Part shown: in pieces, positions 5,426 to 53,519 of the stretch | Position numbering within the stretch: the stretch's first letter is position 1 | How the letters are laid out: each line of letters starts with the position of its first letter | Origin: Candidatus Spechtbacterales bacterium | GTDB taxonomy: Bacteria; Patescibacteriota; Minisyncoccia; Spechtbacterales; 2-12-FULL-38-22 | Assembly (NCBI GenBank): GCA_040902285.1 | Contig: JBBDXP010000007.1 | Location: forward strand, 67,042-123,717 | Direction of reading: 5' to 3' | DNA length: 56,676 nucleotides | The notes under the pieces: generated by a model | Database searches by the model: none | The model's input: the letters and a program-made list of their open reading frames with translations, nothing else | Told to the model about the DNA's origin: nothing | Position numbers and translations under genes: made by a program

Positions 5426-5758
5426 ACAGCCACGCGGGTATTCCTTTTTCACAACACACCGTCAGAATCCCCAGCGAGGATTCTGCGCTCTCTCTCGCCC
5501 TCGCTCGCCCGAAGGGTTCCAATGTTCTTATCCGCGAATCTCTCGGAAGCGCAAAAGCTTGGTTCCTGAGATTTGCCTGTCAAGGACGGACCTTGACAGG
5601 CAAATACGGTTTTCGAAGGATTTTGCGCTGAGAGGAAGCGGACGATTTCCGCCGGAGAAATCGGACCGCGGTTTGCGGGAAGAAGCATTGGAACCCTTTG
5701 GGCACCATGCCCGCTCGGGCTCCGAGGGGTTGTGAAAAAGGAATACCCGCGTGGCTGT
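5426..5758. mobile_element. Nested non-autonomous palindromic element (outer copy 5426-5758, inner copy 5512-5698, innermost hairpin 5571-5605)
   Basis: Perfect 30-bp outer IR (5426-5455 / 5729-5758); inner IR aagggttccaatg / cattggaaccctt; core homologous to the truB insert and to 53372-53519. Confidence 0.8.
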
Positions 5759-5803
5759 ACTAACAAAAAGCGGCTCAATGCGTGAGCCGCTTTAAAGAAC
5801 TTT

Positions 5804-7438
5804 TTATACAACCGGTTTTGGTGGGATCGGAACCGAAGAAACAAGTTTCTTGGTGTACGGGTGTTCGGGATTTCCGAACACAAGCTCGGGCGGGCCCATC
5901 TCGACCACTTTACCTTCTTTCATCACCGCAACCCTGTCGCAGACAGAGGCGATGGTGGAAAGTTCATGCGAAATAATAATAAGAGCGAGGCCCATTTCGT
6001 CATGCAAACGCACCAGAAGTTCCATTATGATATTTTTACGCGAAGCGTCTAAGGACGCTGTCGGCTCGTCCAAAATCAGGAGCTGTGGATTTGTCGCGAG
6101 AGCTCTTGCTATGGCTATTCTCTGCTGTTCGCCACCGCTAAGGCGGGCCGGGTAATCCCACATCCGCTCGAGAGGACTTCCGACAGACAGAAGAAGTTCC
6201 GCGACCCGTTCCGTTTTTTCTCTGTCTCTGCCTTTAGCAGAGGTACTCTCGTAGAGGTTCTGGATATCCAAGCCCTCAGCGATCAAATCTCTTATCCGCA
6301 TGCGCGGAGTTAAGCTTTGGCGCGATGCCTGAGGCACGCCTCCCAAAAACCTTCTGGCGATGGAATCGTCGGCCAAAGGAATGTTTATATTGCCCGAGAG
6401 CTCTGCGTTGGGAGGAAGAACATCCAAAATTGCGCGCATAAGGGTTGTTTTCCCGCTTCCCGATTCGCCCACAATGCCGAATATCTCTCGACGACCTACC
6501 GAAAATGAAACTCCGTCCACTGCTTTAAGAGAACCGGAACGCCTCTGGAACAGTCCCTTTCTTTTGTACACAGGGTAATCAACGCGCACATTCTCAAGAA
6601 CAAGCGCGTTGGAAGTACCGGCCTCGGGAATTCTCTTTTCCCTGAGAGGCCTGTCCATGCGCGGAAGATCCCGCAGGACATTGCGCACAAATTCGGATTT
6701 GGGTCTGGAGAAAACATCTTTGGCATTTCCGTATTCTGCCACTTCGCCGTCTTTGAGAACGACAACATTGTCTGCGTACCGAGAAACGAGACCGAAATCA
6801 TGAGTAATAAGAATAAGAGATATATTGTTTTCACGAACCTTGGCGACCATGAAATCAAGAACCTGCGCCTGAACAGTGGCGTCCAGAGCCGTTGTTGCTT
6901 CATCGGCAATCAGAATATCGGGCTTTGTAGCAAGAGCCATCATGGCAATGCTCGCCCTTTGTGCCTGGCCTCCGCTCAAGAAAGCGGCGATGCTTTTATA
7001 CTTTTCCGAATAATCAGAAATGTACGCCTGCTCAAGAAGCTTTTCCGCTTCCTCTCTAAGACGCTTGCGCGGAATGGATGAATGGAGAGTAAGCATTTCT
7101 TCTATTTGTTTGCCGACCGGCACAACAGGGTTGAAGGTGCCCACCGCATCCTGAAAGACCATTGATATGCGCTTGCCCCGGTAATTATTCCGCATATCCT
7201 TTTCGGATATATAAAGAAGATTGGTATCTTCAAAAATAACCAACCCGGCACGCACCCGCGCTTTTTCAGGGAGCAGACGGCATATAGCTGAAGCTGTCAT
7301 GCTTTTTCCGCTTCCCGATTCGCCCACAAGCCCCAGAATCTCGCCGCGCTCAAGATTAAATGAAACATCTTTAAGCACTGTTTTTTCGCCGAAAGCGACT
7401 GTAAGGCCGCGCACTTTCAAGAGAGCGTCCTTGCCCAT
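5804..7438 (-). CDS. Peptide/nickel ABC transporter ATP-binding protein, fused double domain (OppD/OppF-like)
   Basis: Two GESGSGK Walker A, two LSGG signatures, ILIADE/LILDEP Walker B; AGGAGG Shine-Dalgarno upstream. Confidence 0.93.
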   Translation of the reverse strand: MGKDALLKVRGLTVAFGEKTVLKDVSFNLERGEILGLVGESGSGKSMTASAICRLLPEKARVRAGLVIFEDTNLLYISEKDMRNNYRGKRISMVFQDAVGTFNPVVPVGKQIEEMLTLHSSIPRKRLREEAEKLLEQAYISDYSEKYKSIAAFLSGGQAQRASIAMMALATKPDILIADEATTALDATVQAQVLDFMVAKVRENNISLILITHDFGLVSRYADNVVVLKDGEVAEYGNAKDVFSRPKSEFVRNVLRDLPRMDRPLREKRIPEAGTSNALVLENVRVDYPVYKRKGLFQRRSGSLKAVDGVSFSVGRREIFGIVGESGSGKTTLMRAILDVLPPNAELSGNINIPLADDSIARRFLGGVPQASRQSLTPRMRIRDLIAEGLDIQNLYESTSAKGRDREKTERVAELLLSVGSPLERMWDYPARLSGGEQQRIAIARALATNPQLLILDEPTASLDASRKNIIMELLVRLHDEMGLALIIISHELSTIASVCDRVAVMKEGKVVEMGPPELVFGNPEHPYTKKLVSSVPIPPKPVV

Positions 7439-7533
7439 GGTTTTTTACCTCCTTTCTTTCGGTTTTTGCCTGTCTCGCCAAGGCGGGCGTTTAGTATTCA
7501 ATGGCAGTGGCGAACTTCGCCGCTGCCATTGAC

Positions 7534-8487
7534 CTATCTCTTCAAACTGATTCTCGGATCGGCCAAAAAGTATAGTATATCCACAACAAGGATGATGAAA
7601 ATACTCAGCATTGAACCGATAATGCCAACCGCCAGAATAACGGGGTAATCCCTGCCGAAAACAGAGTCGATGGTAAAGCGGGCAAGACCCGGGATACCGT
7701 ATATCTGTTCAACAAAGAATGAGCCCTCAAAGAATGTGAAGAATATGGGAACCAAAACCGTCATTAGCGGGAGCCACGCATTGCGCAAGACATACCTGGT
7801 GGCGATTTTGGAAGGATGCAGTCCTTTGGCTTTTGCCGTGCGGACATATTGTTCATCCATAATGCCAAGGGTAATGGTGCGCACGAAGCGCGCCATGCCG
7901 ATAACGCCGACAAGGGAAAGGGTAAGTATGGGAATTATCGCCGAAGTGGTGAATATCCCCTCCCATCCTCCCTGCCATCCGGCGGGAAGCCATCCCAGTT
8001 TAAGCGAAAATAAAAGAATGAAAAACTGAATCAAAAGCAGTGACGGAATTGCTGCAAAGACCAGGAATCCCGAAAGCAGAAGTGTATCAATCCAGGTTCC
8101 TCTCTTGAATGTAGCAAAAAGTCCGACTAATATTCCCAGGAATACCCCTATAACCGACGCAACAAGCCCCAGAGGAGCCGAAACCTGTATTCGCTCCCAC
8201 AAAAGCTCCGCTACCGGCCTGTCCTGGAAACGCAAACTATCGCCAAAATCGCCTTGCAAAAAATCTCCCATATAACTGAAGTACTGCTCATAAAGAGGCC
8301 TGTCAAATCCGTACTGTTCGCGTATAAGCTGTCTGGTCTCTTCAGAGGCCGTGGGACCCGCGATAATATCTATAGGATCGCCCGGAGCGTACATAACGAC
8401 AAAGAATATCAGCAATGAAAATACGAGAAAGTAAACAGGAAAAACAGCCAAACGCCGAAGCGCGTAAAAGGCAACTTCGCTACGCAT
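7534..8487 (-). CDS. oppB: Peptide ABC transporter permease (OppB/DppB-like)
   Basis: APGDP, GFDRPLYEQY, GDFGDS, YVRTAKAKGL EAA loop, RDYPV. Confidence 0.9.
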   Translation of the reverse strand: MRSEVAFYALRRLAVFPVYFLVFSLLIFFVVMYAPGDPIDIIAGPTASEETRQLIREQYGFDRPLYEQYFSYMGDFLQGDFGDSLRFQDRPVAELLWERIQVSAPLGLVASVIGVFLGILVGLFATFKRGTWIDTLLLSGFLVFAAIPSLLLIQFFILLFSLKLGWLPAGWQGGWEGIFTTSAIIPILTLSLVGVIGMARFVRTITLGIMDEQYVRTAKAKGLHPSKIATRYVLRNAWLPLMTVLVPIFFTFFEGSFFVEQIYGIPGLARFTIDSVFGRDYPVILAVGIIGSMLSIFIILVVDILYFLADPRISLKR

Positions 8488-9443
8488 TATTCGCCCTCTC
8501 TTTCATGTTCGCTCGCCAGTATCCTTGTAAGCCGAAGCTCAAGGAAAAGAATGGCGAATAGGAACAGCCCCACTATGAGTCCCGGAATTATTACCAGGTG
8601 CGGCATAGCGTTAAGTATCCTACTTGAAGCCGTTTCAGAGAACATTGCTCCGAATGACGGGTGCGGGGGTCTGATGCCGATGCCGAAAAACGACAGGGCA
8701 ATTTCAGTGCCGATAACACCGGCGAACATAAGAAGCGCGGAGTGCGCTATGTATGTGTAAAGCTGGGGCAGAATATGCCTGAAGATAATCCGCTTATTGC
8801 TGGCACCCAGCATTTTGGCGCTTTCCACAAACGCGCTGTCGCGCAGGGAAAGAACCTGCGAACGATACATGCGGGCCGGTCCGACCCAGAAAATCATGGA
8901 TGTAACCAGGAAAATAAGAGCCAGATCGGCTACTCCCGTTTTAATGATCCATTCCCCCACAGGCCCGAGATTAAAAATGAAATCGTCGTACCTTGGGCGC
9001 GCAATCGCAGTGAAAAGCAAAATAAACAGAAGAGCGGGCACGCCGATGAAAATCTCACCAACGCGCATTATGATCGCCTCTGCCTTGCCGCCAAAATATC
9101 CGGCAACAACGCCAAGAATAATCGCAAGTGGCATACCTCCAAGAAATGCTGTCATTACGATTAAGACATCCGTGACACGGGCCGCGTAAAGCACGCGCGT
9201 AAACATATCGCGGCCGAGCATATCCGTCCCAAACCAATGCTCGGCAGAAGGACCCTGGCGGGCTTCCGCCAAATTTTGGGCGGCGTAGTCACCAGGCCAG
9301 AAAAACGAAAGAATGCCAAGCGCCAAAAAGAAGGCGATATAAATCAAAGCGGGGCGCGCAAACTTGTCCTTCCACATCAAAAACAGCAGTTCGGACAGTG
9401 TGCCTCTCCGCTTTTTAGACATCTCTACTATTGCGGAAACCAA
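8487..9443 (-). CDS. oppC: Peptide ABC transporter permease (OppC/DppC-like)
   Basis: PSAEHWFGTDMLGRD, FVESAKMLGAS..IIFRHILP. Start placed at in-frame TTG 9443 because AGGAGG lies just upstream. Confidence 0.88.
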   Translation of the reverse strand: MVSAIVEMSKKRRGTLSELLFLMWKDKFARPALIYIAFFLALGILSFFWPGDYAAQNLAEARQGPSAEHWFGTDMLGRDMFTRVLYAARVTDVLIVMTAFLGGMPLAIILGVVAGYFGGKAEAIIMRVGEIFIGVPALLFILLFTAIARPRYDDFIFNLGPVGEWIIKTGVADLALIFLVTSMIFWVGPARMYRSQVLSLRDSAFVESAKMLGASNKRIIFRHILPQLYTYIAHSALLMFAGVIGTEIALSFFGIGIRPPHPSFGAMFSETASSRILNAMPHLVIIPGLIVGLFLFAILFLELRLTRILASEHEREGE

Positions 9444-9599
9444 CTCGATCCTCCTTTCTTTTTTGTACTGAGTTGTCAATGAACTGATGCTTTAAAATAT
9501 AACGAAATATCCGTTAAGTCAAGACAAAGCATCTTGACCAAAGTTAACTTTTTATATATTGTATGCGTATCATTGTACCTAAACAAAAGGAGGAAGAAC

Positions 9600-11201
9600 A
9601 TGAGAAAGCTCTCAGGTTTTCTTGTTATCCTGGCGCTGGTAGTTTCCGCTTGTTCCGCCGCCCCTTCGGGCAGCCCAAGCGCCACAAACCAGCCGAGCCA
9701 GAATGCCGATCCGCTTTGCAAAGCGGTTGAACGCACAAGGATTGATTTTGCGGTTCTTAACGACGTTGCTTTTCTGCTGGACAAGTATTCTGTGTTTCAG
9801 GATACAGCAACCAATCCCCGACTTTTGCTGAATCGGACTCACGAGGCGATCTGGAACTATCTGGGCGTTCCCACAGCCAGCATTCCGCAGTGGTCCCGGG
9901 ACATTGTGGACGCTGAGGTGGCACGAAGCAACGGCCATACGGATTTTTCCATCTTTAACCGGGTGTACCAGGAGCTAATCAAAGACCCGAATTATTCGGA
10001 TCTTAAAGATTCATCCCGGCTGGAAGAGCTTGTCCAGGCCTCCATAAAAGGTGTAATTGACGCTATCGGAGACCCATTCGCTTCTTACATGTCCGCTGAT
10101 CTTTACCTTAGCGGGGCCGCGGATAACTCAGGTTCCTACAGGGGCCTTGGGGTGACCCTACGCACCAATTCAAGGGGTGAGATAACCTTTGATTCCATAA
10201 CAGAAGGCAGTCCCGCGGAAAAAGCGGGAATCAAAACAGGCGATGCACTTCTCGAGGTAAACGGCCTTTCCACTTTGAGTTGTTCCGTGAGACAGTTCTC
10301 CCTGCTTATCAAATCGCTTTCAGACCCGCGGCTTAAGCTGACCATTGCCAGAGAAATTCCGCTTTCTACAGAGAGGGAAACTTTGACAATAGATGTGACG
10401 ATGGAAACTATTCAACAGGTTCATCTCTCTACTTATCCCGCGGTTGCGCTTCCCGGTGGCAGGGGCGACACACACGAGGGCGTCCCTTACCGATGCGGGG
10501 CTGAAGGGTCTTACGGAATTCCGTGTCCGTTCGTTGACGACGGCGGCAATGGATATCCGGATGTGTTTTACATACGCATACATCAGTTTTCCGGACAAAT
10601 GGCACAGGACCTTGAATATGTAATGTCAACCACGGACTGGTCGCTGTATAAAGGCGTCGTTGTGGATGTTAGGGATAATCCAGGCGGATGGGTGTCGGCA
10701 ACGCTTGACGCGATAGATTTCTTCCTGCCAAGCAACGACGTTATATTCATACAGCAGGATGCCAACGGAACCGTCACAAAGACCCGGCAAAACAGGGTCA
10801 CGTATGTTCCAGAAGATATGCCCGTTGTTATCCTTATGAATAACAACAGCTATTCGGGCGCCGAGCTTTTTGCCGCGGCGCTGCGCGATCACGGGCGGGC
10901 TGTTATTGTTAACAGCTACGAAAGCAGCGGCGGAAAAGGAAGCGTTAACCGCTGGTTTACTCTTCGCAACGGGGAGTACGGAGCTGTTTATATTTCCTTC
11001 GCTCTTTGGCTTACGCCCAATGGTGAAATGATTGAAAAGCAAGACCTGGACAACGACGGCCACTATGAGGTGGGGGGGCTTAGTCCGGATATCTATATTC
11101 CTTGGTCAGATGACGACTTTGCCAAAAACAATAGAGACGTCAACTATGACCCCACTATTGAGATGGCCCTGGATTACATACAGGAACACCTTAGTAAATA
11201 A
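9600..11201 (+). CDS. S41-family C-terminal processing peptidase, lipoprotein with PDZ domain
   Basis: Lipobox LVVSAC; DPFASY; PDZ GSPAEKAGIKTGD; DVRDNPGG; SYSGAELFAAAL (Ser) and GKGS (Lys); AGGAGG before ATG 9600. Confidence 0.9.
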   Translation: MRKLSGFLVILALVVSACSAAPSGSPSATNQPSQNADPLCKAVERTRIDFAVLNDVAFLLDKYSVFQDTATNPRLLLNRTHEAIWNYLGVPTASIPQWSRDIVDAEVARSNGHTDFSIFNRVYQELIKDPNYSDLKDSSRLEELVQASIKGVIDAIGDPFASYMSADLYLSGAADNSGSYRGLGVTLRTNSRGEITFDSITEGSPAEKAGIKTGDALLEVNGLSTLSCSVRQFSLLIKSLSDPRLKLTIAREIPLSTERETLTIDVTMETIQQVHLSTYPAVALPGGRGDTHEGVPYRCGAEGSYGIPCPFVDDGGNGYPDVFYIRIHQFSGQMAQDLEYVMSTTDWSLYKGVVVDVRDNPGGWVSATLDAIDFFLPSNDVIFIQQDANGTVTKTRQNRVTYVPEDMPVVILMNNNSYSGAELFAAALRDHGRAVIVNSYESSGGKGSVNRWFTLRNGEYGAVYISFALWLTPNGEMIEKQDLDNDGHYEVGGLSPDIYIPWSDDDFAKNNRDVNYDPTIEMALDYIQEHLSK

Positions 11202-11209
11202 AAAATGTT

Positions 11210-11290
11210 GCCCCCGATTTAATCGGGGGCTTTTATTTTATTGGCGTATTAAATAAAAACCCCCATCCTTTTGTGTAAAAGGATGGGGGT
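11210..11290. terminator. Pair of intrinsic terminators between convergent genes
   Basis: gcccccgat-tta-atcgggggc-tttt and aaaaacccccatcctttt...aaaaggatggggg. Confidence 0.75.
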
Positions 11291-11299
11291 GTCTGCGGC

Positions 11300-13042
11300 C
11301 TACCGGTCGCAGAAGCTTACATATCTGAGAATAGATATTCCCATCGGAGTGGGATAATACCCGCAAACAAAGGGCTTAATTAAAATAGAATCCTTGGGGT
11401 GGAATAGGGTAATCCAGGGGGCATCAGCGACGACAATGTCCTCGATTTGGCGGTAAAGCTGAATTCGCTTTTGAGGATCCGGCTCCACTCGAGCTTCGCG
11501 AATGAGGTCGTCGACCTCGTCATTAGAATAACGGGTTTCGTTATTCGCGGACGAACGCCAGCTCTCAAATTTCATAAAGAAGTTGTCCGGGTCCGGATAG
11601 TCGGCAATCCAGCCAAGGGAATACATCTGGAACGTCCCCTTCTTGAGCTCCTCAAGGAAGGTCGCGTAGTCCACCTGTTCAATCTCAACCTCTACCCCGA
11701 GATTGCTCTTCCAGAACTGGACGATGCTCTGCAGAACAACGCTGGGCGCCGACCCGCTTCCCGAAATAGTGATTTTAACGCGCGGCATATTGCCGGCGTA
11801 CTTGCTCTGAGCCAGAAGTTCTCTGGCGGCCGCCGGATTGTACTCCAGACCCTTATAGTCCGCGCGGTACCCGGGCATTCCGGGAGGCAAAACTCCGTTT
11901 GCCGGAACAGCTAGATCCTGTAAAACATCTCTCGCGATGGACGCCTTGTCAACAGACATAGCAAATGCCTGCCGGACAAGAGGATCATCGAACGGAGGGG
12001 TGCGGGTATTAAAGCCAATATAGGAAGTGGACATCTCGGTCATTTCAAAGTACTGCTTGGAAAGCTCTGAATTACGATCGCGAACCTGCTTGAGCAGATC
12101 CAGATCGGCAACGCCTATACCCGTAAAGTAAAGTTCGTCATTCTCGTATCGCAGGTAAGTGGATCCTCCGGAAATATAGAAGACGATCCGCTGTATCTGG
12201 GGCTTATGCCCGAAATAGTTCGGATTCGGCTCCATTACGATTTCGGCGACATCTTTCTTTACGATAACCCATGGTCCGGTCGAATTGGGCCTGTCGGTCC
12301 AGCGGGCCGGCCCTTCGGTCTGAACTTTGTCCACGACGGAAGCGACCTCGTAAGTCATCTTCATCATGAAAAGTTCCGGACTTACCGAATCAGCAAGCGT
12401 TGTGATTCGGATAGTTCTTTCGTCTAAAACTTCCACGCCGGTCAGATCGATGAAGACCTCGTCCTGGCGGGGAGAAACGCGGTTGATAATGCGCCCTCTC
12501 TGCATGTCGAGAACACCCACGATATCCCCCAAGTATAGTTCAGCAGTCGAAGAACGCGTACGCGGATCCGCCGCCCGGTCAAGCGAGTAAGCCATATCCC
12601 GCGCGGTAACAACCCGCCCATTAGCAAACTTTGCGTTCTCCCGTATAACAAATGTATAAGAAACCGTTCCGTCGCCGTTAACGACCGGAGTGGGAATCTC
12701 TTCGGCAAGGTCCGGAACAACAATAGCTGACGCCGTAAGCTCGCCGCTCTGGTAGCGCTTTATCATAGCTTCGTCCGTGGTATCGATGCCCACAGCGACA
12801 AGATTTCCGTTCTTGTCATAAAAAGCGGGTTCCAAACGAACAAGCTTGGCATACAACATGCCTGTGTATCCGTGCGAACCGGCATCTGTCACCAGATGCG
12901 GATCCAGGGTAAGCGGCTCTCCGGCCGGAATCAGAAGAACATCATGTCTCTGATTGCCGGCGCTGCTGCTTGGCTCCGGCGAGGAACTGCAGGCCGTAAC
13001 AATAAAAGCAAGTGCCAAAAACACGACGCCGTACTTCCTCAT
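11300..13042 (-). CDS. oppA: Peptide ABC transporter substrate-binding lipoprotein (SBP family 5, OppA-like)
   Basis: Lipobox FIVTAC; TLDPH; PNSTGPW; PPFDDPLVRQAF; GWIADYPDPDNF. Confidence 0.92.
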   Translation of the reverse strand: MRKYGVVFLALAFIVTACSSSPEPSSSAGNQRHDVLLIPAGEPLTLDPHLVTDAGSHGYTGMLYAKLVRLEPAFYDKNGNLVAVGIDTTDEAMIKRYQSGELTASAIVVPDLAEEIPTPVVNGDGTVSYTFVIRENAKFANGRVVTARDMAYSLDRAADPRTRSSTAELYLGDIVGVLDMQRGRIINRVSPRQDEVFIDLTGVEVLDERTIRITTLADSVSPELFMMKMTYEVASVVDKVQTEGPARWTDRPNSTGPWVIVKKDVAEIVMEPNPNYFGHKPQIQRIVFYISGGSTYLRYENDELYFTGIGVADLDLLKQVRDRNSELSKQYFEMTEMSTSYIGFNTRTPPFDDPLVRQAFAMSVDKASIARDVLQDLAVPANGVLPPGMPGYRADYKGLEYNPAAARELLAQSKYAGNMPRVKITISGSGSAPSVVLQSIVQFWKSNLGVEVEIEQVDYATFLEELKKGTFQMYSLGWIADYPDPDNFFMKFESWRSSANNETRYSNDEVDDLIREARVEPDPQKRIQLYRQIEDIVVADAPWITLFHPKDSILIKPFVCGYYPTPMGISILRYVSFCDR

Positions 13043-13212
13043 TTCCTTCTCCTTTTCTTCCCCTCTTGTTTTGGGTCCGCCTTGGCTGTCGCCAGACGAG
13101 ACAGGTCCGCTCTGTTAAGTCAGGCGGGACAGTTTTTCTGTTGATGCAAAACAGCCGCATCCTACACTTTGAAACAAGGTGCAGGATGCGGCTTCCGTCG
13201 TATCGGATATAT

Positions 13213-14175
13213 TTAAGAGCCGAGAACAGAAGCGACGCGGTTCTTTATCGTCTGTGTAGAAACCACAACGCCCATTCCCGAGCCCGAGGAAACCAGAATT
13301 CCCGCCCACTGGGGCTTGCCGTCTCTGAGAACAAAGACAGGCGCGCCCAGATCCTGCGCAAGGAAGTTTCCGGAAAGTAAGACGAGGCCCCGGTCCGCGA
13401 TAACTCCCTGGACGGAGGCGTTGCCCAAAACAACAACACCGCCTATTGTCCTAGGGAATATGGCCGCGTTCAGTGGCCGGACATCGTCAAGAGATGCCTG
13501 CGTGTAGGGATATCCGTTTGGCTCGGCAATGACCCTATCGACCGGACGCTTAAGGAAAAGCAATCCGTATTCGGGATCGGGGTATATGCCGTCCGCCGCT
13601 ACGAACTCTTCCACAGTTCCCTTAAAGAGGGTTTCCTGCTTCCACTGGTCCTCGACGCGCTGATCGGGAAGGAGAACAATCTCCAGTTGCACGCGCGAAG
13701 CGGCTTCAGCCGGAACATTAAGAGAAACCAGAGAAATGGGAACGATCGTGAAATCGTTCACCAAAACGGAAGAGAGCGCTGTTTGCGCGATGGTCTGAGG
13801 AAGCAAGCCGTCCGAATTGAACAGAGCGCGGATATTGTCGGGAACCTCTTCGATTGTTTCCACACCAAGAATGGCAAGGACCTCTTCCTCGGTGTAATAG
13901 CGCACAGCCGTAAGAGAGACAAGGCGAACGTATTCACTTGTGCTCAAAACATCTGTGCCCGCAAGTTCTGCCTGCAAAAAGTTCGAATCAAACTCTCCAT
14001 CGCTTAAAAGATTTACAAGATCCCGATGGCGGGCCTCCGCATTCGGGGGCTCATACTGGTTAAAACCGCCCAAAGCGCCAACCGCGCCAAGGGTAAGCGA
14101 GAAAGTAAGAACCATAAGAAGCAAAACGATTCCGGGCGTACGAAGCCGGCCGGCAATCTCTCCGAACTTCAGCAT
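13213..14175 (-). CDS. Secreted/membrane-anchored hypothetical protein, possibly a degenerate trypsin-like fold
   Basis: N-terminal TM; C-terminal 'AQDLGAPVFV..DGKPQWAGILVS' resembles GDSGGPV without the Ser; AAGGAG before ATG 14175. Confidence 0.55.
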   Translation of the reverse strand: MLKFGEIAGRLRTPGIVLLLMVLTFSLTLGAVGALGGFNQYEPPNAEARHRDLVNLLSDGEFDSNFLQAELAGTDVLSTSEYVRLVSLTAVRYYTEEEVLAILGVETIEEVPDNIRALFNSDGLLPQTIAQTALSSVLVNDFTIVPISLVSLNVPAEAASRVQLEIVLLPDQRVEDQWKQETLFKGTVEEFVAADGIYPDPEYGLLFLKRPVDRVIAEPNGYPYTQASLDDVRPLNAAIFPRTIGGVVVLGNASVQGVIADRGLVLLSGNFLAQDLGAPVFVLRDGKPQWAGILVSSGSGMGVVVSTQTIKNRVASVLGS

Positions 14176-14303
14176 TTCTTCTCCTTTTGTTTGTGCAAGG
14201 TACGATGCATGAAAAATACCACAACAAAAACACCCAGTCAATATGCTTAGCGCGTTTTAGCTCATTGGACAAATATTACTGTTCCGGGCTATAATGCACC
14301 GTT

Positions 14304-16229
14304 ATGAATTTTGAATTAAACGCTAATTTTAAACCGCGCGGAGATCAAATTAAGGCAATAAAGGAGCTTGGTAACAGCATTAAAAACGGCGCGAAAGACC
14401 AGGTTCTTTACGGTGTTACCGGTTCTGGAAAAACATATACTGCCGCCAACATAATAGCTCAAAGAAACAAGTCGGTGCTTGTAATAAGCCATAACAAAAT
14501 GCTGGCTTGGCAGTTGTATCAGGAGTTTAAAGAATTTTTTCCCAAAAATTCCGTACATTATTTTGTAAGTTATTATGATTATTATCAGCCGGAGGCCTAC
14601 ATCCCTCAAACAGACACATACATAGCTAAAGACGCGAGCATAAATAAAAAAATAGATAAAATGCGCCACGCGGCGGTGCAAAGCTTATTAACCCGAAATG
14701 ACACGATAATAGTGGCCTCTGTTTCGTGCATTTATAACATAGGATCGCCTGAGACCTATCAAAAAGTAATTTTGAACATAAAAAAAGGGCAAAAAATTAC
14801 AAGAAAAAAATTGCTTTCTTGCATAACGGGGCTTGGTTTTGCGCGTAATGATTTTGCGCCGGAAGCCGGAAACTTCCGAGCCAAGGGGGGCGCAGTGGAA
14901 ATACACCCTGCAACCGGAGAAAATCCCGTAGTGGTGGAACTTGAAAAAGATGCCGTGGAAAAAATAAGCCGAAACGGAGTTGAGATAAATTCGGTTGATC
15001 TCTATCCGGCGAATTTCTGGGTCGCTCCGCAGGATAAATTAAAAATAGCTACAGAAAATATCCGTACTGAATTGCAAAAACGATTGGAGGAATTAAAAAA
15101 ACAAAAAAAAGAAATAGAAGCATACCGCCTAGAAAAGAAAACCAATTACGACTTGGAGATGATGGAACAAATGGGGTATTGTCCCGGAATAGAAAATTAC
15201 TCGCGGCATATTGATTTCCGCGAGCCCGATGACCCCCCATTCACGCTATTGGATTACATGCCAAAAGAATTTCTTACGATAATTGATGAATCTCACATGA
15301 CAATTCCTCAGATAAGAGGCATGTACGCGGGAGATCGCGCCAGGAAAGAGACACTTATAAACCATGGGTTCCGCTTGCCTTCCGCGCTGGATAACCGGCC
15401 TTTTACATTTGAGGAGTTTGAAAACAGAAGAGGGCAAACTCTTTATATGTCAGCAACGCCCAATCCTTACGAGATAGAAAAATCCAAGGGAAGAGTTTAC
15501 AAACAGATAGTCCGGCCCACGGGACTTCTTGATCCCAAAATAGAAATTCGCAAAACCAATTCGCCATCCGGCGGACAAATGACTGATGTGTTGAGGGAAA
15601 TACAGAGCGCAACCAAAAAAGGGCACCGCGCCATTGTTGTAACTATAACCAAGCGCCTAGCCGAACATATAGCCGAGTACATGGAAGAAAAAGGACTGAA
15701 AGTAAATTACATACACTCTGAAGTGCCCACGCTTAAAAGACCGCTTATAATACAAAAATTGCGCGAGGGTAAATATGATGTCCTTGTGGGAGTAAATCTG
15801 TTGAGAGAGGGTTTGGATTTTCCTGAAGTTTCTCTGGTTGTGATACTGGACGCGGATAAAGAAGGTTTTTTAAGAAACGAGACCACTCTTTTGCAAACCG
15901 TGGGCCGCGCGGCACGGCATGTTGACGGCAGAGCCATCATGTACGCCGATAAAATAACCGGTTCAATGAAAAAAACTATTCTGGAAACAAATAGGCGCAG
16001 GAGTATACAAATGAAATATAACGAAGAACACGGAATAAAACCCTCGAGCATAAATAAAAAAATATATCCGATACCGCGGGAACTCTTGCAAGATGAGGAC
16101 GAAGAAATAGAAATGGATAAATACAAAAATATGGCAAAAAAAGAGCTTGAAAAAGAAATGGAAAAAGCCGCCAAGGAACTTAATTTTGAAAAAGCGGTGA
16201 AATTAAGAGATGAAATTAAAAAATTGTAG
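14304..16229 (+). CDS. uvrB: Excinuclease ABC subunit B
   Basis: GVTGSGKT, FVSYYDYYQPEAY, DESH, GFRLPSALDNRP, C-terminal UVR domain. Confidence 0.97.
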   Translation: MNFELNANFKPRGDQIKAIKELGNSIKNGAKDQVLYGVTGSGKTYTAANIIAQRNKSVLVISHNKMLAWQLYQEFKEFFPKNSVHYFVSYYDYYQPEAYIPQTDTYIAKDASINKKIDKMRHAAVQSLLTRNDTIIVASVSCIYNIGSPETYQKVILNIKKGQKITRKKLLSCITGLGFARNDFAPEAGNFRAKGGAVEIHPATGENPVVVELEKDAVEKISRNGVEINSVDLYPANFWVAPQDKLKIATENIRTELQKRLEELKKQKKEIEAYRLEKKTNYDLEMMEQMGYCPGIENYSRHIDFREPDDPPFTLLDYMPKEFLTIIDESHMTIPQIRGMYAGDRARKETLINHGFRLPSALDNRPFTFEEFENRRGQTLYMSATPNPYEIEKSKGRVYKQIVRPTGLLDPKIEIRKTNSPSGGQMTDVLREIQSATKKGHRAIVVTITKRLAEHIAEYMEEKGLKVNYIHSEVPTLKRPLIIQKLREGKYDVLVGVNLLREGLDFPEVSLVVILDADKEGFLRNETTLLQTVGRAARHVDGRAIMYADKITGSMKKTILETNRRRSIQMKYNEEHGIKPSSINKKIYPIPRELLQDEDEEIEMDKYKNMAKKELEKEMEKAAKELNFEKAVKLRDEIKKL

Positions 16230-16240
16230 TAGAAATAACC

Positions 16241-17002
16241 ATGCTTTTGATAAATAAAAAACCAGGGCCCACATCTCACGACATAGTTGATGAAATTAGA
16301 AAACTAACCAAAGAAAAAAGAGTGGGCCACGCGGGAACACTGGACCCGTTTGCCGAAGGGCTTCTTATTGTGCTTGTGGGCAGAGAGGAAACGCGTAAAC
16401 AGGCGGAGTTTTTAAATATGGATAAAACATACGAAGCGGTATTTATTTTGGGTGAAGAGCGGGATACAGATGATATTACCGGCAGGGTTCGGGATGCAGG
16501 CACCTCGGAAACTTCGTCCCGAGTATCACAGTCGGATTTTTCCAGCGAAAATCCGCCGCTGCCTCTCAGCGGAAAATCCCGCAAAAGCGGGAACCAAGCT
16601 TTTCCGCTTCCGAGAGCTACTCGGGACAAAGTTTCCGAGGTGCTCGCCTTAAAAGAAATTAAAAATGCCCTGAAAAGGTTTGAAGGAGAAATTGAACAAA
16701 TGCCTCCAGCGTATTCGGCAAAAAAAATAAAGGGTAAAAAAGCGTATGAACTTGCGCGCAGAGGCAAAGAGCCGAAGTTGCATGCGAAAAGGGTGAAAAT
16801 TTATGAAATAAAACTGTTAAACTACACATGGCCGGAGTTAAAAATTCGTACAACGGTTAGTTCGGGAACGTATATACGCGCGCTTGCCCGAGACATAGGA
16901 AGAGAGCTTGGCGTGGGAGCTTATGTTAAAGAATTAAAAAGAACACACATTGGGAAATATTCTTTAGATGAAGCCAAAACACTTGAAGAATTAAAAAAAT
17001 AG
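16241..17002 (+). CDS. truB: tRNA pseudouridine(55) synthase carrying an in-frame 48-codon insertion
   Basis: VGHAGTLDPFAEG, QMPPAYSAKKIKG, SSGTYIRALARDIG. Confidence 0.93.
   Translation: MLLINKKPGPTSHDIVDEIRKLTKEKRVGHAGTLDPFAEGLLIVLVGREETRKQAEFLNMDKTYEAVFILGEERDTDDITGRVRDAGTSETSSRVSQSDFSSENPPLPLSGKSRKSGNQAFPLPRATRDKVSEVLALKEIKNALKRFEGEIEQMPPAYSAKKIKGKKAYELARRGKEPKLHAKRVKIYEIKLLNYTWPELKIRTTVSSGTYIRALARDIGRELGVGAYVKELKRTHIGKYSLDEAKTLEELKK
16500..16643. mobile_element. 144-bp palindromic element inserted in frame in truB
   Basis: IR gcacctcggaaactt-c-gtcccgagta / tactcgggac-a-aagtttccgaggtgc; length is a multiple of 3. Confidence 0.85.
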
Positions 17003-17036
17003 TGGTAACGTGGGAGTGTAAAATACGAACAAAAAT

Positions 17037-17351
17037 ATGCCTAATTTGCAAAATGCGAAAAAAGCGCTGCGACAGACAAAGAAAAAAACAGCGCTGAACC
17101 GCCAGTATAAAAACAGGATAAAAAAAGTTTCCCGAATGATTGACGATGCCGTTAAATCGGGAAACCAAAAAGAGGCGGAAAAAATGCTTCCGATTTATTT
17201 TAAAGCGATTGATAAAGCGGCCAAGCACAACATCATCCACAAAAACACGGCTTCACGAAGAAAATCCTCATATTCTAAGAAGGCGGGTGTAAGCGCAAAC
17301 AAGCAATCTCAGGATAAAATAGCCACCGCTAATAATTCGCAAGACAAATAG
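17037..17351 (+). CDS. rpsT: 30S ribosomal protein S20
   Basis: MPNLQNAKKALRQ...IDKAAKHNIIHKNTASRRKS. Confidence 0.95.
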   Translation: MPNLQNAKKALRQTKKKTALNRQYKNRIKKVSRMIDDAVKSGNQKEAEKMLPIYFKAIDKAAKHNIIHKNTASRRKSSYSKKAGVSANKQSQDKIATANNSQDK

Positions 17352-18250: not shown

Positions 18251-18282
18251 ATCGTCTTATTATTGTGCCCTAATTTTAACAT

Positions 18283-18308: not shown

Positions 18309-18313
18309 CTGAT

Positions 18314-40743: not shown

Positions 40744-40768
40744 TACTCGGGGCCTATTTTTAATGAAT

Positions 40769-42325: not shown

Positions 42326-42949
42326 TCATTCTGCAACACACTCTTTACCGTTCCAGTCACAACCTTCCACATCGCACTCTTTTTCGCTTTTCATGAGATT
42401 GCAGTCGGGTTCGTCGGGAACACCTATGGGTTCTATTTTGTCTACACACTTGCTGTTTTTCCATTCACACTCAGGATGGCTGGGGCATTGGGAAAAATTC
42501 CATTGCGCGCAACCCGCGGGTTTTACGGAAGGGTCCTGCAGATTTGTTATTTGCGGATTTATAATATTTAAAATTATTACAGACAACAACAATATAAATA
42601 TACCCCACACCACATTTTTTAATCTTTCCCTCGCGGCGGCTCTAACCGCGGGGCTTTCTCCTCCGACTATAAACTGGATACCCGTGTATATTAAAGAAGT
42701 AAACGCGACCAGTCCCCCTATCCATATAGAGGCGACAAAAAGGAATAATATTATGTTGCCTATGGTCGGGTTGCAGGTTCCGTCTTCTATGCAGTTTAGA
42801 TCAAAAAATCCGCCGGGAACAGGCGCGGGTATTTTTGGGTAGTTTACATTCAAATCTATGCCCGCCGCGTTTGCGTTTACGGCAAGCGTCAAAACAAGGA
42901 TGCTAAAAACAGCAAGAGGTATTATTTTTTTAAAAATGTTCTTTTTCAT
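42326..42949 (-). CDS. T4SS pilin-like (TrbC/VirB2-like) protein with short Cys-rich tail, paralog 3
   Basis: Signal peptide ANA|A; YPKIPAPVPGG; IYTGIQFI...AAARERLKNVVWG...ILNIINP. Confidence 0.75.
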   Translation of the reverse strand: MKKNIFKKIIPLAVFSILVLTLAVNANAAGIDLNVNYPKIPAPVPGGFFDLNCIEDGTCNPTIGNIILFLFVASIWIGGLVAFTSLIYTGIQFIVGGESPAVRAAARERLKNVVWGIFILLLSVIILNIINPQITNLQDPSVKPAGCAQWNFSQCPSHPECEWKNSKCVDKIEPIGVPDEPDCNLMKSEKECDVEGCDWNGKECVAE

Positions 42950-43061
42950 CCCGTTAGTAATTACTGCTTACGCAGTTTTAATTTATATGTATTTAACTAA
43001 ATCAACTACCTATATTTACTGTACTTAGCTTAGCAGACCCGTTAGGGTAATTACTAACGGG
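42950..43061 (-). repeat. CCCGTTAG...CTAACGGG element, subfamily A
   Basis: Abuts ATG 42949; homologous to copies at 5254 and 23569. Confidence 0.9.
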
Positions 43062-43068
43062 ATTCATT

Positions 43069-43731
43069 CTATTGCTCTTCCGGTGACGCAAAATCTTCTG
43101 TGTATGGCTCTTCATGCTGTTCCAATTGCTGTTCCAATGCCAGGGTATCCAGTCCCGGGGAACTCGCGATTCTATAATAAAAGCTGGCCTCTGATTGCGG
43201 GACAAAATATAAAACTCCGGTTATATCCTGCAAATTGCTTGATTCTACGGCTACGCCCTCTTCCAGAAAAATATGCCACGGCCACTCGCTCTCATTGCTC
43301 CAGTAAACAAGATCCGGCTCACCATACTTATCTGTGTAGTCCGAAAAAGCTCCTCTGTAGTCGGAGTAAACATATTCCAGCGCGTAATAAACGGTTTCGC
43401 CTCTAAGCGCCACAACATTTTCAAAAAACTCTATGGGTGTTTTATAATACATATAAGTAAACACATCGTGCGTGGACACGGTGTAGGGCCGGCCAATAAT
43501 CTTTTCCACATCCTCGCGTGTGCTTTCCCCCGGGATTATCTCGTTAATCCTGCTGTAATCGGCTTCAAGGTCCATTGTCGGAGGAGCTTGATCGGGATCA
43601 ACTACCTCTCTTTCAAGTACCGCGCTTTCGTCCTCCCCGCTTGTCAATGTCAGTATAATCGCAACAACACCTATGACAAGAAATAAAGATATGGCTAAAA
43701 GAAAAATATGTTTTTTGATAAAATCTATCAT
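43069..43731 (-). CDS. Acidic membrane-anchored protein with a BamE/BLIP-like motif
   Basis: N-terminal TM; IIPGESTREDVEKIIGRP and KYGEPD half-repeats. Confidence 0.6.
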   Translation of the reverse strand: MIDFIKKHIFLLAISLFLVIGVVAIILTLTSGEDESAVLEREVVDPDQAPPTMDLEADYSRINEIIPGESTREDVEKIIGRPYTVSTHDVFTYMYYKTPIEFFENVVALRGETVYYALEYVYSDYRGAFSDYTDKYGEPDLVYWSNESEWPWHIFLEEGVAVESSNLQDITGVLYFVPQSEASFYYRIASSPGLDTLALEQQLEQHEEPYTEDFASPEEQ

Positions 43732-50298: not shown

Positions 50299-52327
50299 CT
50301 ATGAATCCTTATTCTTATCTTTATCTGTATCTTTATCCGTACCTCCGCTTTTTGCTGAATCTAACGCTTCCCTTATTTCTTCTCCAATATCTTTTTTTCT
50401 GGCAGTTTTGAGTAATGCGGCAATATTTGGACTGGTGCTAATATTGTTCGCGAAAGAAGAGCCCGTGCGGCGTTTTATTACATCTTCCACCGCGCCCCCG
50501 ACTAAGCCATAAGCAGCCGATATTCCTGCCTCCAATGCTTTTGTTTTTTCAATGTCTTTACCTATATCGGCAACAAAGCTCTTGGTAAACTTATCCTGTT
50601 TGATCAATTCATCTACTATACCCGGATCTTTTAAAACTCCAGGGGACCAGTTTCTCATCGATTTTTCTGTTGCTTTAGCTATAACTTCCCCAATATCTTT
50701 ACCGAGCTGTTTTGCAATGTCCGGCCTGATTTCGAGTACGCTCTTTTCACTGCCCGGCATTGTTATACTTCGGGCGTTCATCTCTTTTGCGAACTTCTCA
50801 AATTTCTTTGTTCCATTTGCCTTATCATCTGTTTTGAGTTTGTCCACATGCTCATTAAATTTGTCGGGATGCTTATTTACCAGTAAGTCGGTTATCTTTG
50901 CCCTTTCTTTTGAATTTGAGGTATAATTAAGGGCTTGAAGCAGGGCTGTTGGAGAATAATTATCATAACCCTTAACTTTTTTCCATTCTTGTTGGTATGT
51001 TTCTTTTCCGGCCCCGTATCCTTTTCTAATGGGTGCAACCAATTGTTTTATTCCCGGTAGTTGAAGCACGGTTTTAATCGGTTTTCCAACGCTACTCGTT
51101 ACCCCTTTTGCTTTTTCGGGTGTTACATCCTTATACAACGTGGATCCGCCTACGTCTCTTATTTGTCTTGACACCCACCTTCCGCTCGCGTTTACACCTC
51201 CTTGATACAGCCGTCTTGCCCCTTTTATTATTGCCTGTGAACCCTCCGCGCTGAATGACATACTCATCATTATTCCTATAACCAAGGCCCCAAGAGCAAA
51301 TACCATCTGTGACGCCTCACATATATTCAATTCTGCTTGCAAATCGTTAATCTCGGTTGGATTGCTTGTTATGACGGTGGGACAAGGCACTTCAAGGAAC
51401 CACCCGGCCAGCCACAGGGAGAAAAGAAGCGGAACTATTATTATGGACCACTGTATGAAATTGCTCCACCAGCGGTCGTATAATCTTGCCATCATATACT
51501 TAACGTTTAAAAATTAATCCTATAAAAGCTATTGGAGAAAGTATAACCAGTATTGTCAGCATAAGCGTTCTTCCGAAGAGTAGCAGGGATAAAAGCAAAT
51601 ATACAAATATTAAAAACAAGTTGATTAAAATAGAAACAACCGCTTTTACAAGTATTGCTATAGCTTCTGATATGTCCGCACTGAATATACTGCCCAACAC
51701 GGCAATTATATCTCCAAACACATCCCCTAAATAGTCGAAGCCCCCGAACGGATTACTGTTTATCAACGCGCTGCTGCTTCTTTTGGCGCTTTCCCAAAAA
51801 ACATAACCCGCTATATTTGATAGATCTATAATTATACCGGTTATTATCGGCGTAAAGTTTATCAGAAGCGCTACAACAAAAAATCTTCCCAGCATACGCT
51901 TGTTTATTGTCTGCAGATTGAGCATTGTTCCCACGCCTATAGCCACAAAAACAATAACAAGCGACATATTAGCTAAATCACGCATTACGGGCCAACCTAC
52001 ATCAAATATTGTTCCGGATGTGTAAGTATGTGTGAGTGTTAGCTCTAAGAAAAATTCCATGAACATCCGCGCTATCCACGCAACAAATATAAGCAACAGG
52101 TTTACTATTGCGGCTAGTATGACAACAACGGCTATTAAAAAGGCCATTACTATTCTGAAAAAGAACTCAAATACAGCCGTTGCAACATCTTCAAAGAAAC
52201 CGGCATTGGCTGGCTCTGGCATTAACATGAGGGTTCCTGCTATCAAAACAACAGCCACAATCAAAACAGTCCTCGCAACAGGCGCCTTTTCGTTAAAAAT
52301 ATTCTTAGGGTTTAAAATGCCCCTCAT
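50299..52327 (-). pseudogene. VirB6/TrbL-like polytopic membrane protein split by a frameshift (51500-52327 and 50299-51495)
   Basis: GWPVMRDLAN, VALLINFT, ILSPIAFI, then 'YDRWWSNFIQWS' continues in another frame; removing one base of ATTTTTAAAC restores one ORF. May be a sequencing error. Confidence 0.65.
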
Positions 52328-52441
52328 CCCGTTAGAAGCAGATTGCGATTAAACCACAACCTGCAGTTCTTAATTATTTATTTGAATTATTATTGTTTTA
52401 AATTACTCATCCCGTATATTGCGATCGCGACTTCTAACGGG
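52328..52441 (-). repeat. CCCGTTAG...CTAACGGG element, subfamily B
   Basis: Abuts ATG 52327; homologous to 40769-40882. Confidence 0.9.
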
Positions 52442-52496
52442 ACTTATTGACTTAATTATACAACAGGGCGTTTGTAGTAGCCAATCTACTTTTCCA

Positions 52497-53348
52497 CTAA
52501 TTTAAATTATTTGCGCGCAATAGTTCAGCGAGTTTAAGCCAATCTTTGGGGTGCAGGGCTTCTGCCCTTATCGATATATCCAACCCTGCGGTTTTAAGCG
52601 TGTTTTCGATGTCGGCCCGGGGTATTTTAAATTGTTTAGACAAATTTTTTGCCAGTTGTTTGCGCGGAGAAGAAAAACCCGCTTTAACCGCGCGAAAAAG
52701 CTCTTCCTCATTTGTTTTTGGCTTTTCTATATTTTTAACGGTTAAAATAGCCGAGTTTATTTTTGGTTTTGGCCAAAAAGCGCTGCTCGGTATTTGTTTT
52801 TCCAGTTTTGTTTTGCCGTATATTTGTACGGAAATCGCCAGAAGGTTGGTTTTGGGAGGACGGGCTGTAATTTTTTCAGCTATTTTCTTCGGAATAATAA
52901 CCGCTATTAATTTGGGAGGGTTCTCTGTGTTTTCAAGAAATTTTCTGAACAATCTAGCTGTTAGGTAGTATGGAATCGCGCCCACTAGTTTATAGGATCT
53001 TGCTTGAGAGTTTGTCCGCCAGTTGGCGGATTGTAAATTGTAAATTGAAAATTTTAATATATCATCTTCTACAATCTCAACATTTTTATGATTTGCGAAT
53101 TCATCTTTAAGCAATTTCACAAGCCGAGGATCTTTTTCTACAGCTATTACTTTTTTAGCTTTTTTTGCCAGTTCTTGCGTTATCCCCCCTGTCCCGGGGC
53201 CAACTTCAATCACGACATCTTTTGAGGATATTTCAGCCGAGGCAATTAAATCAATTATATATTTTTTATCAATTAAAAAATTCTGCCCTAATACTTTGTT
53301 CGGCGTTATGTTGTATTTTTCTAACAGGATTTTTATTTTATTTGACAC
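52497..53348 (-). CDS. rsmA: 16S rRNA adenine dimethyltransferase
   Basis: LGQNFLID, IEVGPGTG, AVEKD, IPYY, FWPKPKINS, RAEAL. Confidence 0.95.
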   Translation of the reverse strand: MSNKIKILLEKYNITPNKVLGQNFLIDKKYIIDLIASAEISSKDVVIEVGPGTGGITQELAKKAKKVIAVEKDPRLVKLLKDEFANHKNVEIVEDDILKFSIYNLQSANWRTNSQARSYKLVGAIPYYLTARLFRKFLENTENPPKLIAVIIPKKIAEKITARPPKTNLLAISVQIYGKTKLEKQIPSSAFWPKPKINSAILTVKNIEKPKTNEEELFRAVKAGFSSPRKQLAKNLSKQFKIPRADIENTLKTAGLDISIRAEALHPKDWLKLAELLRANNLN

Positions 53349-53371
53349 TTGTTTTGTTTATGACTTTATTC

Positions 53372-53519
53372 TAGAAGTGTCCGGCATTGTTTTTAGCGAT
53401 TCTCGGAGGCATTTTTGGCTTGGTCCGAGTGCAGCGAGGCGAAAATGCCGAGAGGGAGCGGTGGTTTTCCGCTGGAGAAAACCAACCACGGTCGCTAAAA
53501 ACAATGCCGGACACTTCTA
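53372..53519. mobile_element. 148-bp palindromic element, same core family as the truB insert
   Basis: Perfect 28-bp IR tagaagtgtccggcattgtttttagcga / tcgctaaaaacaatgccggacacttcta; its end is the pcrA TAG stop. Confidence 0.85.

Follow-up and report, generated by a model that had tools for sequence, protein, structure and literature searches.

What kind of genetic unit is a short repeat whose branched fold is conserved and whose terminal arms differ from copy to copy? This question is raised by a stretch of 56,676 nucleotides (hereafter the window, that is, the whole stretch analysed) of a Candidatus Spechtbacterales bacterium, positions 67,042 to 123,717 of the forward strand of contig JBBDXP010000007.1 in assembly GCA_040902285.1, where a first-pass annotation made from the letters had recognised four copies of an element of about 145 bp. 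That annotation took the element to be either a mobile unit recognised by its structure, through single-stranded DNA of the HUH type or through RNA, or an undescribed structured RNA. The copies do form a family, one that had not been catalogued before and that is widespread in Patescibacteria. The comparison of its copies supports the idea that it is defined by structure and not by terminal sequence, and the observations support the view that the family behaves as a mobile or proliferating unit. Our reading, to which we give a probability of about 45%, is that it is an undescribed non-autonomous, structure-specified selfish repeat of Patescibacteria, akin to the Rickettsia palindromic elements (RPEs) or to the REPINs, the hairpin-forming pairs of repetitive extragenic palindromic sequences (REPs). 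Direct observations, which are taken up one by one below, are the fold and the strand that carries it, how many copies there are and how they nest, the insertions in frame within genes, the placement relative to stop codons and the range of taxa.

The window lies on contig C7 of an assembly of 623,642 bp in 15 contigs that is 95% complete, which is the size expected of an ultra-small bacterium of the Candidate Phyla Radiation (CPR). In the following, G000 denotes this genome and C1 to C15 its contigs, numbers with L denote loci, and G005 and G007 are two congeneric relatives.

The element and its copies in the window

The fold consists of a long closing stem, P1, which leads to a three-way junction, and of the hairpins P2 and P3, whose loops are conserved and rich in purines. 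On the DNA the core runs from P1 through CTCGGARG, P2 with an internal GCTTGGT, GAGAGGNAGCGG, P3 with the loop CGCYGGA, and ACCRCGG to the return strand of P1. The length of P1 ranges from 6 to 34 bp and its sequence is particular to each lineage. The stems of the hairpins vary freely, and the conserved nucleotides are those of the junction, the internal loop and the apical loops, which as RNA read CUCGGARG, GCUUGGU, GAGAGGNAG, CGCYGGA and ACCRCGG.

On inspection of the sequence, the four copies are present where the first-pass annotation had placed them, the P2 and P3 stem pairs that it quoted match the window letter for letter, three copies have the core on one strand, and the outer one of a nested pair follows the same plan in the opposite orientation. 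The copy at 53372..53519 (plus strand, subtype A) has 148 bp with perfect arms of 30 bp. The copy at 16500..16643 (minus strand), with 144 bp, or 48 codons, and perfect arms of 26 bp, lies in frame inside the gene truB. The outer copy of the nested pair (subtype C, 5426..5758, minus strand) has its P1 arms at 5426-5469 and 5715-5758, and within its P2 hairpin it is broken up by the inner copy (about 5515..5695, plus strand, subtype B, 181 bp), which sits in the P2 loop and whose pairing is lengthened by the adjoining stem of the outer copy to about 5507-5703.

With a covariance model (R1) built from 12 copies of the genome, which was scanned by regular expression, by nhmmer and by R1, three of the window copies are recovered at E values from 1e-23 to 1e-29 (1.5e-29 for the 53372 copy, 2.4e-24 for the truB copy and 1.9e-23 for the inner copy). 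The interrupted outer copy is weak in the same scan, with an E value of 0.137. It is nevertheless a genuine member, because two uninterrupted copies of the same subtype, G000:C12:16346-16492 and C13:15574-15720, score 49.8 and 47.8 bits, respectively, with the filters of the model search off.

Covariation and the strand of the fold

The covariation of the stems, which had been noted among the window copies, holds far beyond them, as seen in three alignments. In alignment A1, made with MAFFT from 12 copies of the genome, 88.4% of the cells are paired and double changes occur in 21 of the 38 pairs. In A2, fitted to the model and made from 20 copies of 14 other genomes, the corresponding values are 89.6% and 35 of 38, and in A3, likewise fitted and made from 44 copies of a genome collection, they are 88.7% and 31 of 38; none of 500 shuffles is as good in any of the three. 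The fitting to the model biases A2 and A3 in favour of the structure; A1 is unfitted and agrees with both, and sliding its 3′ partners by one to three columns lowers the pairing to 43-56%.

The two strands can be told apart. The calculated folding energies of the strand that reads CTCGG are −85 kcal/mol for the 53372 copy and −91 kcal/mol for the 16500 copy, versus −76 and −84 kcal/mol for the complements, so that the CTCGG strand is more stable by 7-9 kcal/mol. For both copies and both strands the z values are −10.6 to −11.6, with 0 of 200 shuffles folding equally well. Moreover, when A3 is read on the CTCGG strand, it contains 143 G·U cells versus 44 A·C cells, with the remaining mismatches mostly G·A; several positions switch between A-U or C-G and G·U, and one pair of the junction is U·G in 42 of the 44 sequences. 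The excess of G·U over A·C means that the CTCGG strand is the strand whose fold is kept.

Such a strand signature, with its G·U pairs and its mainly G·A mismatches, is RNA-like. It is what would be seen if the CTCGG strand gave a functional structured non-coding RNA, which would be a small RNA or else a self-cleaving ribozyme of a new type, carried as a multi-copy gene or in the manner of a retrozyme, and we consider this explanation unlikely. In its favour, the conserved unpaired positions are rich in purines and include a GGA/GA internal loop, and the loops are conserved across the phylum as the stems vary freely. By contrast, the perfect arms of 26-34 bp and the near-absence of wobble pairs from the main stems also fit hairpins of DNA. 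No promoter-like conserved flank was seen, the left flanks of the copies being unrelated by eye, with no promoter scan run. In line with an undescribed unit, and as a further point against the RNA explanation, no Rfam family matches the window at the gathering score over its whole length, and the search of 5300-5900 and 53330-53560 with Rfam 15 at E values up to 10, ribozyme families included, returned low scores to unrelated families, of which the highest is 21.3 bits versus a threshold of 90 bits.

Copy number and terminal arms

In the genome, 15 full-length matches to the model are found with the default filters and two more with the filters off, which makes at least 17. Besides these, there are one interrupted copy and three partial or degenerate ones (one 3′ half that opens C5, one 5′ half that closes C1 and one degenerate copy on C4), giving about twenty copies over the 623,642 bp. 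The copies are scattered over seven contigs, their length is roughly 115-190 bases, and their share of the genome is about 3 kb. Near-identical copies occupy separate loci, with 100% identity over 173 nt in one pair and 99% over 191 nt in another, and the inner copy has relatives of 95-99% identity at C5:10696-10886, C9:77367-77547 and C9:27681-27853. The suggestion that the unit is mobile is upheld by these near-identical copies together with the nesting, the differing positions in congeners and the patchy range described below; the part that linked it to an HUH enzyme is not supported. In addition, a 207-bp unit composed of the 5′ half of the outer subtype followed by a complete subtype A copy is duplicated with 96% identity (G000:C5:3125-3331 and C12:2690-2896), and no 3′ half of the outer subtype was seen with it.

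The arms had been called unrelated. They do differ among the four window copies, which represent four subtypes, but their inner 12-16 bp are conserved within a subtype. The arms of the inner-copy subtype are found again at five loci; the outer arm segments of several copies seem, by eye, to be related via compensated changes on both arms; and in two congeneric species there are copies that have long arms in common plus conserved flanking words. To judge from these alignments, the arms are lineage-specific and fast-evolving, not unrelated. A direct repeat of at least 3 bp flanking the element is absent in eight of the nine copies of the genome that were checked, the ninth having only AAA. By eye, no conserved word is seen in the stretch that separates P1 from the stop codon next to it.

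Nesting and turnover at the sites

Nesting puts one copy into the P2 loop of another, as in the window pair. Assembled contigs of three DNA runs were set against positions 1-20000 of the window, with uncovered parts not counted as evidence. In contigs from two runs (X1 and X2), position 5513 is joined to 5701, with six other letters replacing the inner copy, and the outer-subtype forms in the contigs, which are absent from the metagenome-assembled genome (MAG), carry 6 or 15 other letters at that place. The joints that skip the inner copy are read as further copies and not as empty alleles, because their depth is about the full depth of the genome. Over this range in the three runs, there is no contig joint that skips the copy in truB, and none that skips the outer copy as a whole.

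Some copies have additional hairpins in their loops. The P2 loop of the inner-copy subtype is filled with a 42-nt insert, whose core of 35 nt is a perfect hairpin with 15-bp arms (5571..5605 in the inner copy, with no strand assigned) and forms the centre of the extra length of about 40 nt by which subtype B stands out. This insert is missing from the B-like copy at C9:79385, and a contig joint from 5570 to 5613 leaves out 42 nt of the same loop. One copy has an extra hairpin in its P3 loop. Note also that a metagenome copy, L161:1819-2066, has in its GCTTGGT internal loop, inside P2, a palindromic insert that is unrelated to the element and measures about 130 nt; it is bordered by a 4-bp direct repeat and looks like a MITE (miniature inverted-repeat transposable element) with its target-site duplication.

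Between congeners the positions differ. Only one of the six sites of G005 has a counterpart among the seven matches of G007, the latter genome being 82% complete. At a further G005 site, the same flanking genes in G007 enclose a spacer of 208 nt without a match, and in this comparison of filled with empty site the spacer is too diverged for the boundaries of the insertion to be read.

Position and orientation relative to genes

The gene positions used here come from a longest-ORF heuristic (ORF, open reading frame) and not from a gene finder, the copies within a genome are not independent, and the two contig sets overlap in some contigs; the counts that follow should be read with this in mind. 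For the 15 model-matched copies of the genome, the neighbouring or enclosing genes are opposite to the CTCGG strand in 11, on the same strand in 1 and mixed in 3, and for 20 copies of relatives the numbers are 14, 5 and 1. In the broader sets, the unambiguous cases are 8 opposite vs 7 same in the genome contigs and 18 vs 13 in the metagenome contigs, so that the bias is uneven and much weaker there. It follows transcription and not replication, because the direction of the genes flips repeatedly within 60 kb of C7 and the copies flip with it.

The position relative to stop codons is sharper. In genome contigs, 14 of 18 cases have a stop codon of the opposite strand at a distance of 11-25 nt from the 3′ end of the model match, versus 0 of 15 for stops of the same strand, and in metagenome contigs the corresponding counts are 14 of 21 and 0 of 14; the minimum distance of a same-strand stop from a match is 33 nt. 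In 9 of the 15 cases viewed, the distance from the end of P1 to the stop is 0-8 nt, and in one further case the two overlap by 3 nt. In the window, the 53372 copy ends with three bases that are, on the minus strand, the stop codon of a UvrD-like helicase gene (ORF 53517..55604, Pfam UvrD-helicase). The genes that are abutted are unrelated housekeeping genes, such as those for the UvrD-like helicase, ThrRS, DnaE, FtsA and DapA. Candidate causes of this polarity are a selection against the active strand in messages or a strand-specific step of insertion. A depletion of stop codons was also considered as the cause of the orientation bias and set aside; the open frames per copy, 1.71 for the complement vs 1.18 (0.94 and 0.66 in shuffles), differ modestly.

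These data bear on the explanation by a functional RNA in two ways. The absence of same-sense copies from the nearest 25 nt around stop codons (0 of 14 and 0 of 15) would, on that explanation, reflect selection against an active RNA in host messages. On the other hand, most copies are antisense to the surrounding genes and are placed in tight operon spacers, which is not the arrangement that speaks for an RNA gene.

The placement directly behind stop codons also suggests a quite different role, in which the element would be a cis element recruited by the host at the 3′ ends of genes, with the hairpin of the complementary strand acting as a stabiliser of the mRNA, a processing site or a substitute for a terminator. 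The genome is rich in long perfect hairpins just past stops: G000 has 173 perfect hairpins with arms of at least 10 bp and loops of 0-8 nt (on C7, 19 vs 1 in a shuffle), many of which consist of an A-tract, a GC stem and a T-tract 2-17 nt past a stop codon, like bidirectional terminators (e.g., C9:86399-86442 and C15:31058-31093). The arms of L138, L185 and L147 resemble such terminators, and the fold of the element is maintained in situ, as described in the next section. We nevertheless regard a recruited 3′-end element as distinctly unlikely. The strand whose fold is selected is not the one present in the host messenger; of the 15 arms viewed, only about 3 look like terminators, and in the copies of the genome P1 is not followed by a U-tract; copies are also found inside coding sequences; the positions differ between congeneric genomes; and 46 of the 60 related genomes have no element at all. 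Pre-existing palindromes, abundant as they are, may be the targets of insertion, but the truB copy brought its own 26-bp arms into coding DNA and few arms are terminator-like.

Copies in frame within genes

The gene truB, for tRNA pseudouridine synthase B, occupies 16241..17002 on the plus strand, and the element is inserted in it at about residues 87-135, between conserved blocks. Pfam finds TruB_N split in two stretches around the insert, followed by TruB_C_2, and nine TruB homologues are without the segment and have a short variable loop there. Among eight further ORFs of the genome-collection set that enclose a match (the survey left out three more of this set and 18 of the metagenome set), four have a Pfam family: mnmA in two genomes and a gene of the PIG-L family in two. 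The element is at the same site in both mnmA genes, and likewise at the same site in both PIG-L genes. For the remaining four of the eight there is no Pfam family, and these ORFs may not be real genes. The CTCGG strand is antisense to the gene in each of the five supported cases (truB, two mnmA and two PIG-L genes). There is no single conserved peptide, because the reading frame of the core differs between truB or mnmA and PIG-L; a single conserved reading frame like that of the RPEs is ruled out by the same difference in the central frames.

The same-site copies permit the fate of the fold to be followed at a locus. In the mnmA pair, 14 of the 38 pairs are compensated, 2 are changed on one side and 5 are lost, with an identity of 47% at paired positions vs 69-74% in the flanking coding DNA. 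In the PIG-L pair, 7 of 38 are compensated, 2 are one-sided and 4 are lost, with 74% identity at paired positions vs 71-72% in the flanks. In a same-site intergenic pair of two congeners the fold is likewise retained, by eye. Since transposon junk should decay, the keeping of the fold in these copies speaks for a continuing selection or correction at each locus. The retention of the fold over such long divergence is also in favour of the functional RNA considered above.

In an interpretation that goes beyond our own, the three-way junction may be an active nucleic acid. It would then be either an RNA of a new class, which cleaves itself or recruits proteins, or a folded single-stranded DNA of a new kind that serves as the substrate of transposition for an enzyme not yet recognised. 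If this were true, the fold would be selected locus by locus, even within translated genes, and the element would be a CPR-wide one of an undescribed kind; we hold this to be rather doubtful.

Distribution in other genomes

Among 60 related genomes (0.5-1.2 Mb), 14 carry 1-8 matches each, including five of the seven within the same family. In a sample drawn evenly across the phylum, 6 of 150 genomes are positive, four of them from other classes, and one of those four has 10 copies.

Contig collections were searched by an exact pattern over the P3 region and then checked with the covariance model. The collection of species-representative genomes gave 38 pattern-matched stretches, of which the model confirms 37, with 44 matches. 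CPR labels (Paceibacteria or Parcubacteria lineages, “Patescibacteria group” or the generic “Saccharibacteria”) are borne by 34 of the 38. The other four are one labelled just bacterium, MAGs labelled Gammaproteobacteria and Omnitrophota, and one Kitasatospora stretch (L059), which has no model match and is taken, uninspected, as chance. Metagenome contigs gave 69 pattern-matched stretches. Four of these (L148, L150, L165 and L190) have no model match and look like chance occurrences in GC-rich, coding-like DNA. In all, about 100 further MAG or metagenome contigs have the element, almost all of them labelled Patescibacteria. The pattern matches that the model confirms are all full length or cut by the end of a contig.

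The mobilising enzyme

In our reading, the element would be moved by an enzyme acting in trans, and the first-pass annotation had pointed to RAYT (REP-associated tyrosine transposase) or other HUH proteins and to reverse transcriptases as companions. In the own genome, 95% complete, no gene for TnpB, a reverse transcriptase, IS110 or DDE_Tnp_1 was found; because of this degree of completeness, the absence of an enzyme from the genome is not proven. That no reverse transcriptase was found is also a point against the explanation by a functional RNA. No insertion sequence (IS) is present in many copies, since the longest repeats in a self-BLAST measure about 490 bp.

One gene of interest is present, which encodes a RAYT-like Y1_Tnp protein of 239 aa with HUH and Y motifs read from the sequence (G000:C5:28568-29287, minus strand; L084:1246-1965 is the same gene). 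One may ask if the element is a known kind of single-stranded DNA recombination substrate, either a REPIN-like unit moved by a Y1 enzyme of the RAYT type or an attC-like site for a tyrosine recombinase. Besides this gene, the absence of a target-site duplication fits such a substrate. However, Y1 genes, which occur in 29 of the 60 relatives, are commoner in those without the element (24 of 46) than in those with it (5 of 14), and for this reason the HUH idea is not supported; loss after spread and incomplete bins may affect the comparison. Moreover, the Y1 gene of G000 is not flanked by copies of the element, the nearest on its contig being about 16 kb off. As separate observations, an identical perfect hairpin with 16-bp arms occurs just downstream of the Y1 gene and again about 2 kb away, and some relatives hold 5-8 RAYT-like Y1 genes.

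As to attC sites, they conserve boxes at the base, and structure rather than sequence; the strand of theirs that folds is antisense to the neighbouring ORF, whose stop codon they abut. The element resembles them in conserving structure over sequence and in having its folded strand antisense to an ORF whose stop codon it abuts, and the arms of subtype A contain words resembling the R boxes of attC. The other subtypes are without R-box-like words; the copies are dispersed beside housekeeping genes and inside genes instead of forming cassette arrays; the element is most conserved at its apex, the attC site at its base; and the genome yielded a single tyrosine recombinase gene. Taking the Y1 and attC evidence together, we judge a known substrate of either type to be very improbable.

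The likeness to REPINs and RAYTs lies in the occurrence of hairpin-forming intergenic repeats recognised by shape, in the lack of a target-site duplication and in the single RAYT-like gene of the genome. The differences are the missing co-distribution with Y1, the lack of copies around the Y1 gene, and the architecture, which is a branched core of 115 nt in the element and a pair of 20-40-bp REPs in a REPIN. For the IS200/IS605 family, the comparison likewise gives no TnpB in the own genome, no co-distribution of Y1 and no end word seen by eye. The GTAG or CGTC tag at the head of a REP, which is part of the definition in the accessible portion of PMC3733652, was not noticed in the element, no motif search having been made.

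Other repeats in the genome

The genome contains ordinary-looking repeats in addition. One MITE family of about 135-145 bp is represented in the window at 1403-1543, 5245-5374, 23548-23693 and 42932-43073; it has terminal inverted repeats of about 20 bp starting with CATCCCGTTAG, an AT-rich interior and about 15 copies in the genome by self-BLAST. Two more small families are seen at 40762-40900 and 52311-52448 of the window and also at G000:C7:22711-22847 and 65550-65689. The terminal repeats of both start with CATCCCGT and then diverge, which suggests that several MITE lineages are served by one type of transposase. Window positions 29367-29538 are apparently a partial member of a third repeat family, whose full copies (G000:C9:44744-45014 and C13:9181-9449) have terminal inverted repeats of about 30 bp. 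Finally, as a further small family of palindromes, a perfect palindrome of about 40-50 bp with arms starting AACGTCAA occurs at five sites at least: C5:19558-19607, C5:20238-20283, C6:28978-29019, C6:29636-29677 and C9:82876-82915.

Discussion

We propose the following model for a structure-specified selfish repeat. In the model, the CTCGG strand would fold as a single-stranded nucleic acid and mobility would proceed via this folded strand. The fold would present the conserved loops, which are best read as a recognition surface with the stems kept paired, to a trans-acting enzyme, and this putative enzyme would copy or move the unit and leave no target-site duplication. New copies would then survive where they do little harm, that is, right after the stop of an opposite-strand gene, in a hairpin that is already there, at its apical loop (P2 of another copy being one such hairpin), or in frame within surface loops of a protein. 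The complementarity of the arms and stems would be held partly by selection on the fold, and a hairpin-templated correction, by template switching, may copy changes from one arm to the other.

Several points weigh against this reading. At no single locus was a polymorphism of presence and absence seen. The retention of the fold in the same-site copies fits a host function as well. Viral contigs gave 0 pattern matches, and no copy with a cargo was found among the about 110 pattern-selected loci. The enzymes looked for in the own genome were missing and Y1 does not co-distribute with the element, as described above. To these are to be added the unevenness of the orientation bias and the limits on gene positions and on the independence of the copies that were given with the counts.

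It is useful to compare the element with the known repeats that it resembles most. RPEs, as described in the accessible portion of PMC10969869, are palindromic elements of about 100-150 bp, present in many copies, some of them in frame in unrelated housekeeping genes, where they give translational fusions, with no known transposase. The element is like them, so far as that portion describes RPEs, in being palindromic, in having many copies in a reduced genome, in having no known transposase and in residing in frame in genes (truB, mnmA and PIG-L), a comparison of behaviour and not of sequence. It is unlike them in being from another phylum, with a three-way junction, conserved loops and covariation across the phylum; in using at least two reading frames in different host genes, where the RPEs, going by the same portion, give one conserved peptide; and in that its same-site copies keep the fold via compensated changes.

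Bacterial MITEs are described in the accessible text of the same source (PMC10969869) as small, AT-rich intergenic repeats of many copies, with transcripts predicted to form stable stem-loops. The element shares with them, as they are characterised there, the small size, the many copies and the AT-rich intergenic homes, and ordinary MITE families coexist with it in the genome. By contrast, the element has no target-site duplication, its terminal repeats are conserved within sublineages only, its internal stems covary, and neither the self-BLAST nor the pattern-selected loci gave a parent element that carries a gene for a transposase. On the features compared here and in the preceding sections, the element does not belong with classical MITEs, with RAYT-linked REPINs or with attC arrays. 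In behaviour it is closest to the RPE, and in presumed mechanism to the REPIN/RAYT system or another single-strand recombination substrate. A search of the literature, at the level of listings and abstracts, turned up no such repeat in CPR bacteria.

Concluding remarks

After Rickettsia, the present family is a second, independent case of palindromic repeats that reside in frame within essential genes of a reduced genome. Unlike the Rickettsia case, it combines a deeply conserved branched fold with a clear strand signature and a sharp positional rule at stop codons. The covariance model can be used to flag copies of the element as a source of assembly breaks in CPR metagenome bins, several copies being at or near the ends of contigs. 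Moreover, three matters are made testable by the family, namely movement without a visible transposase, the keeping of a fold by selection versus by hairpin-templated correction, and use by the host. It is noted, finally, that in Patescibacteria, some of whose genomes are among the smallest of bacteria, the present genome spends about 3 kb on this one structured repeat, and more on MITEs.

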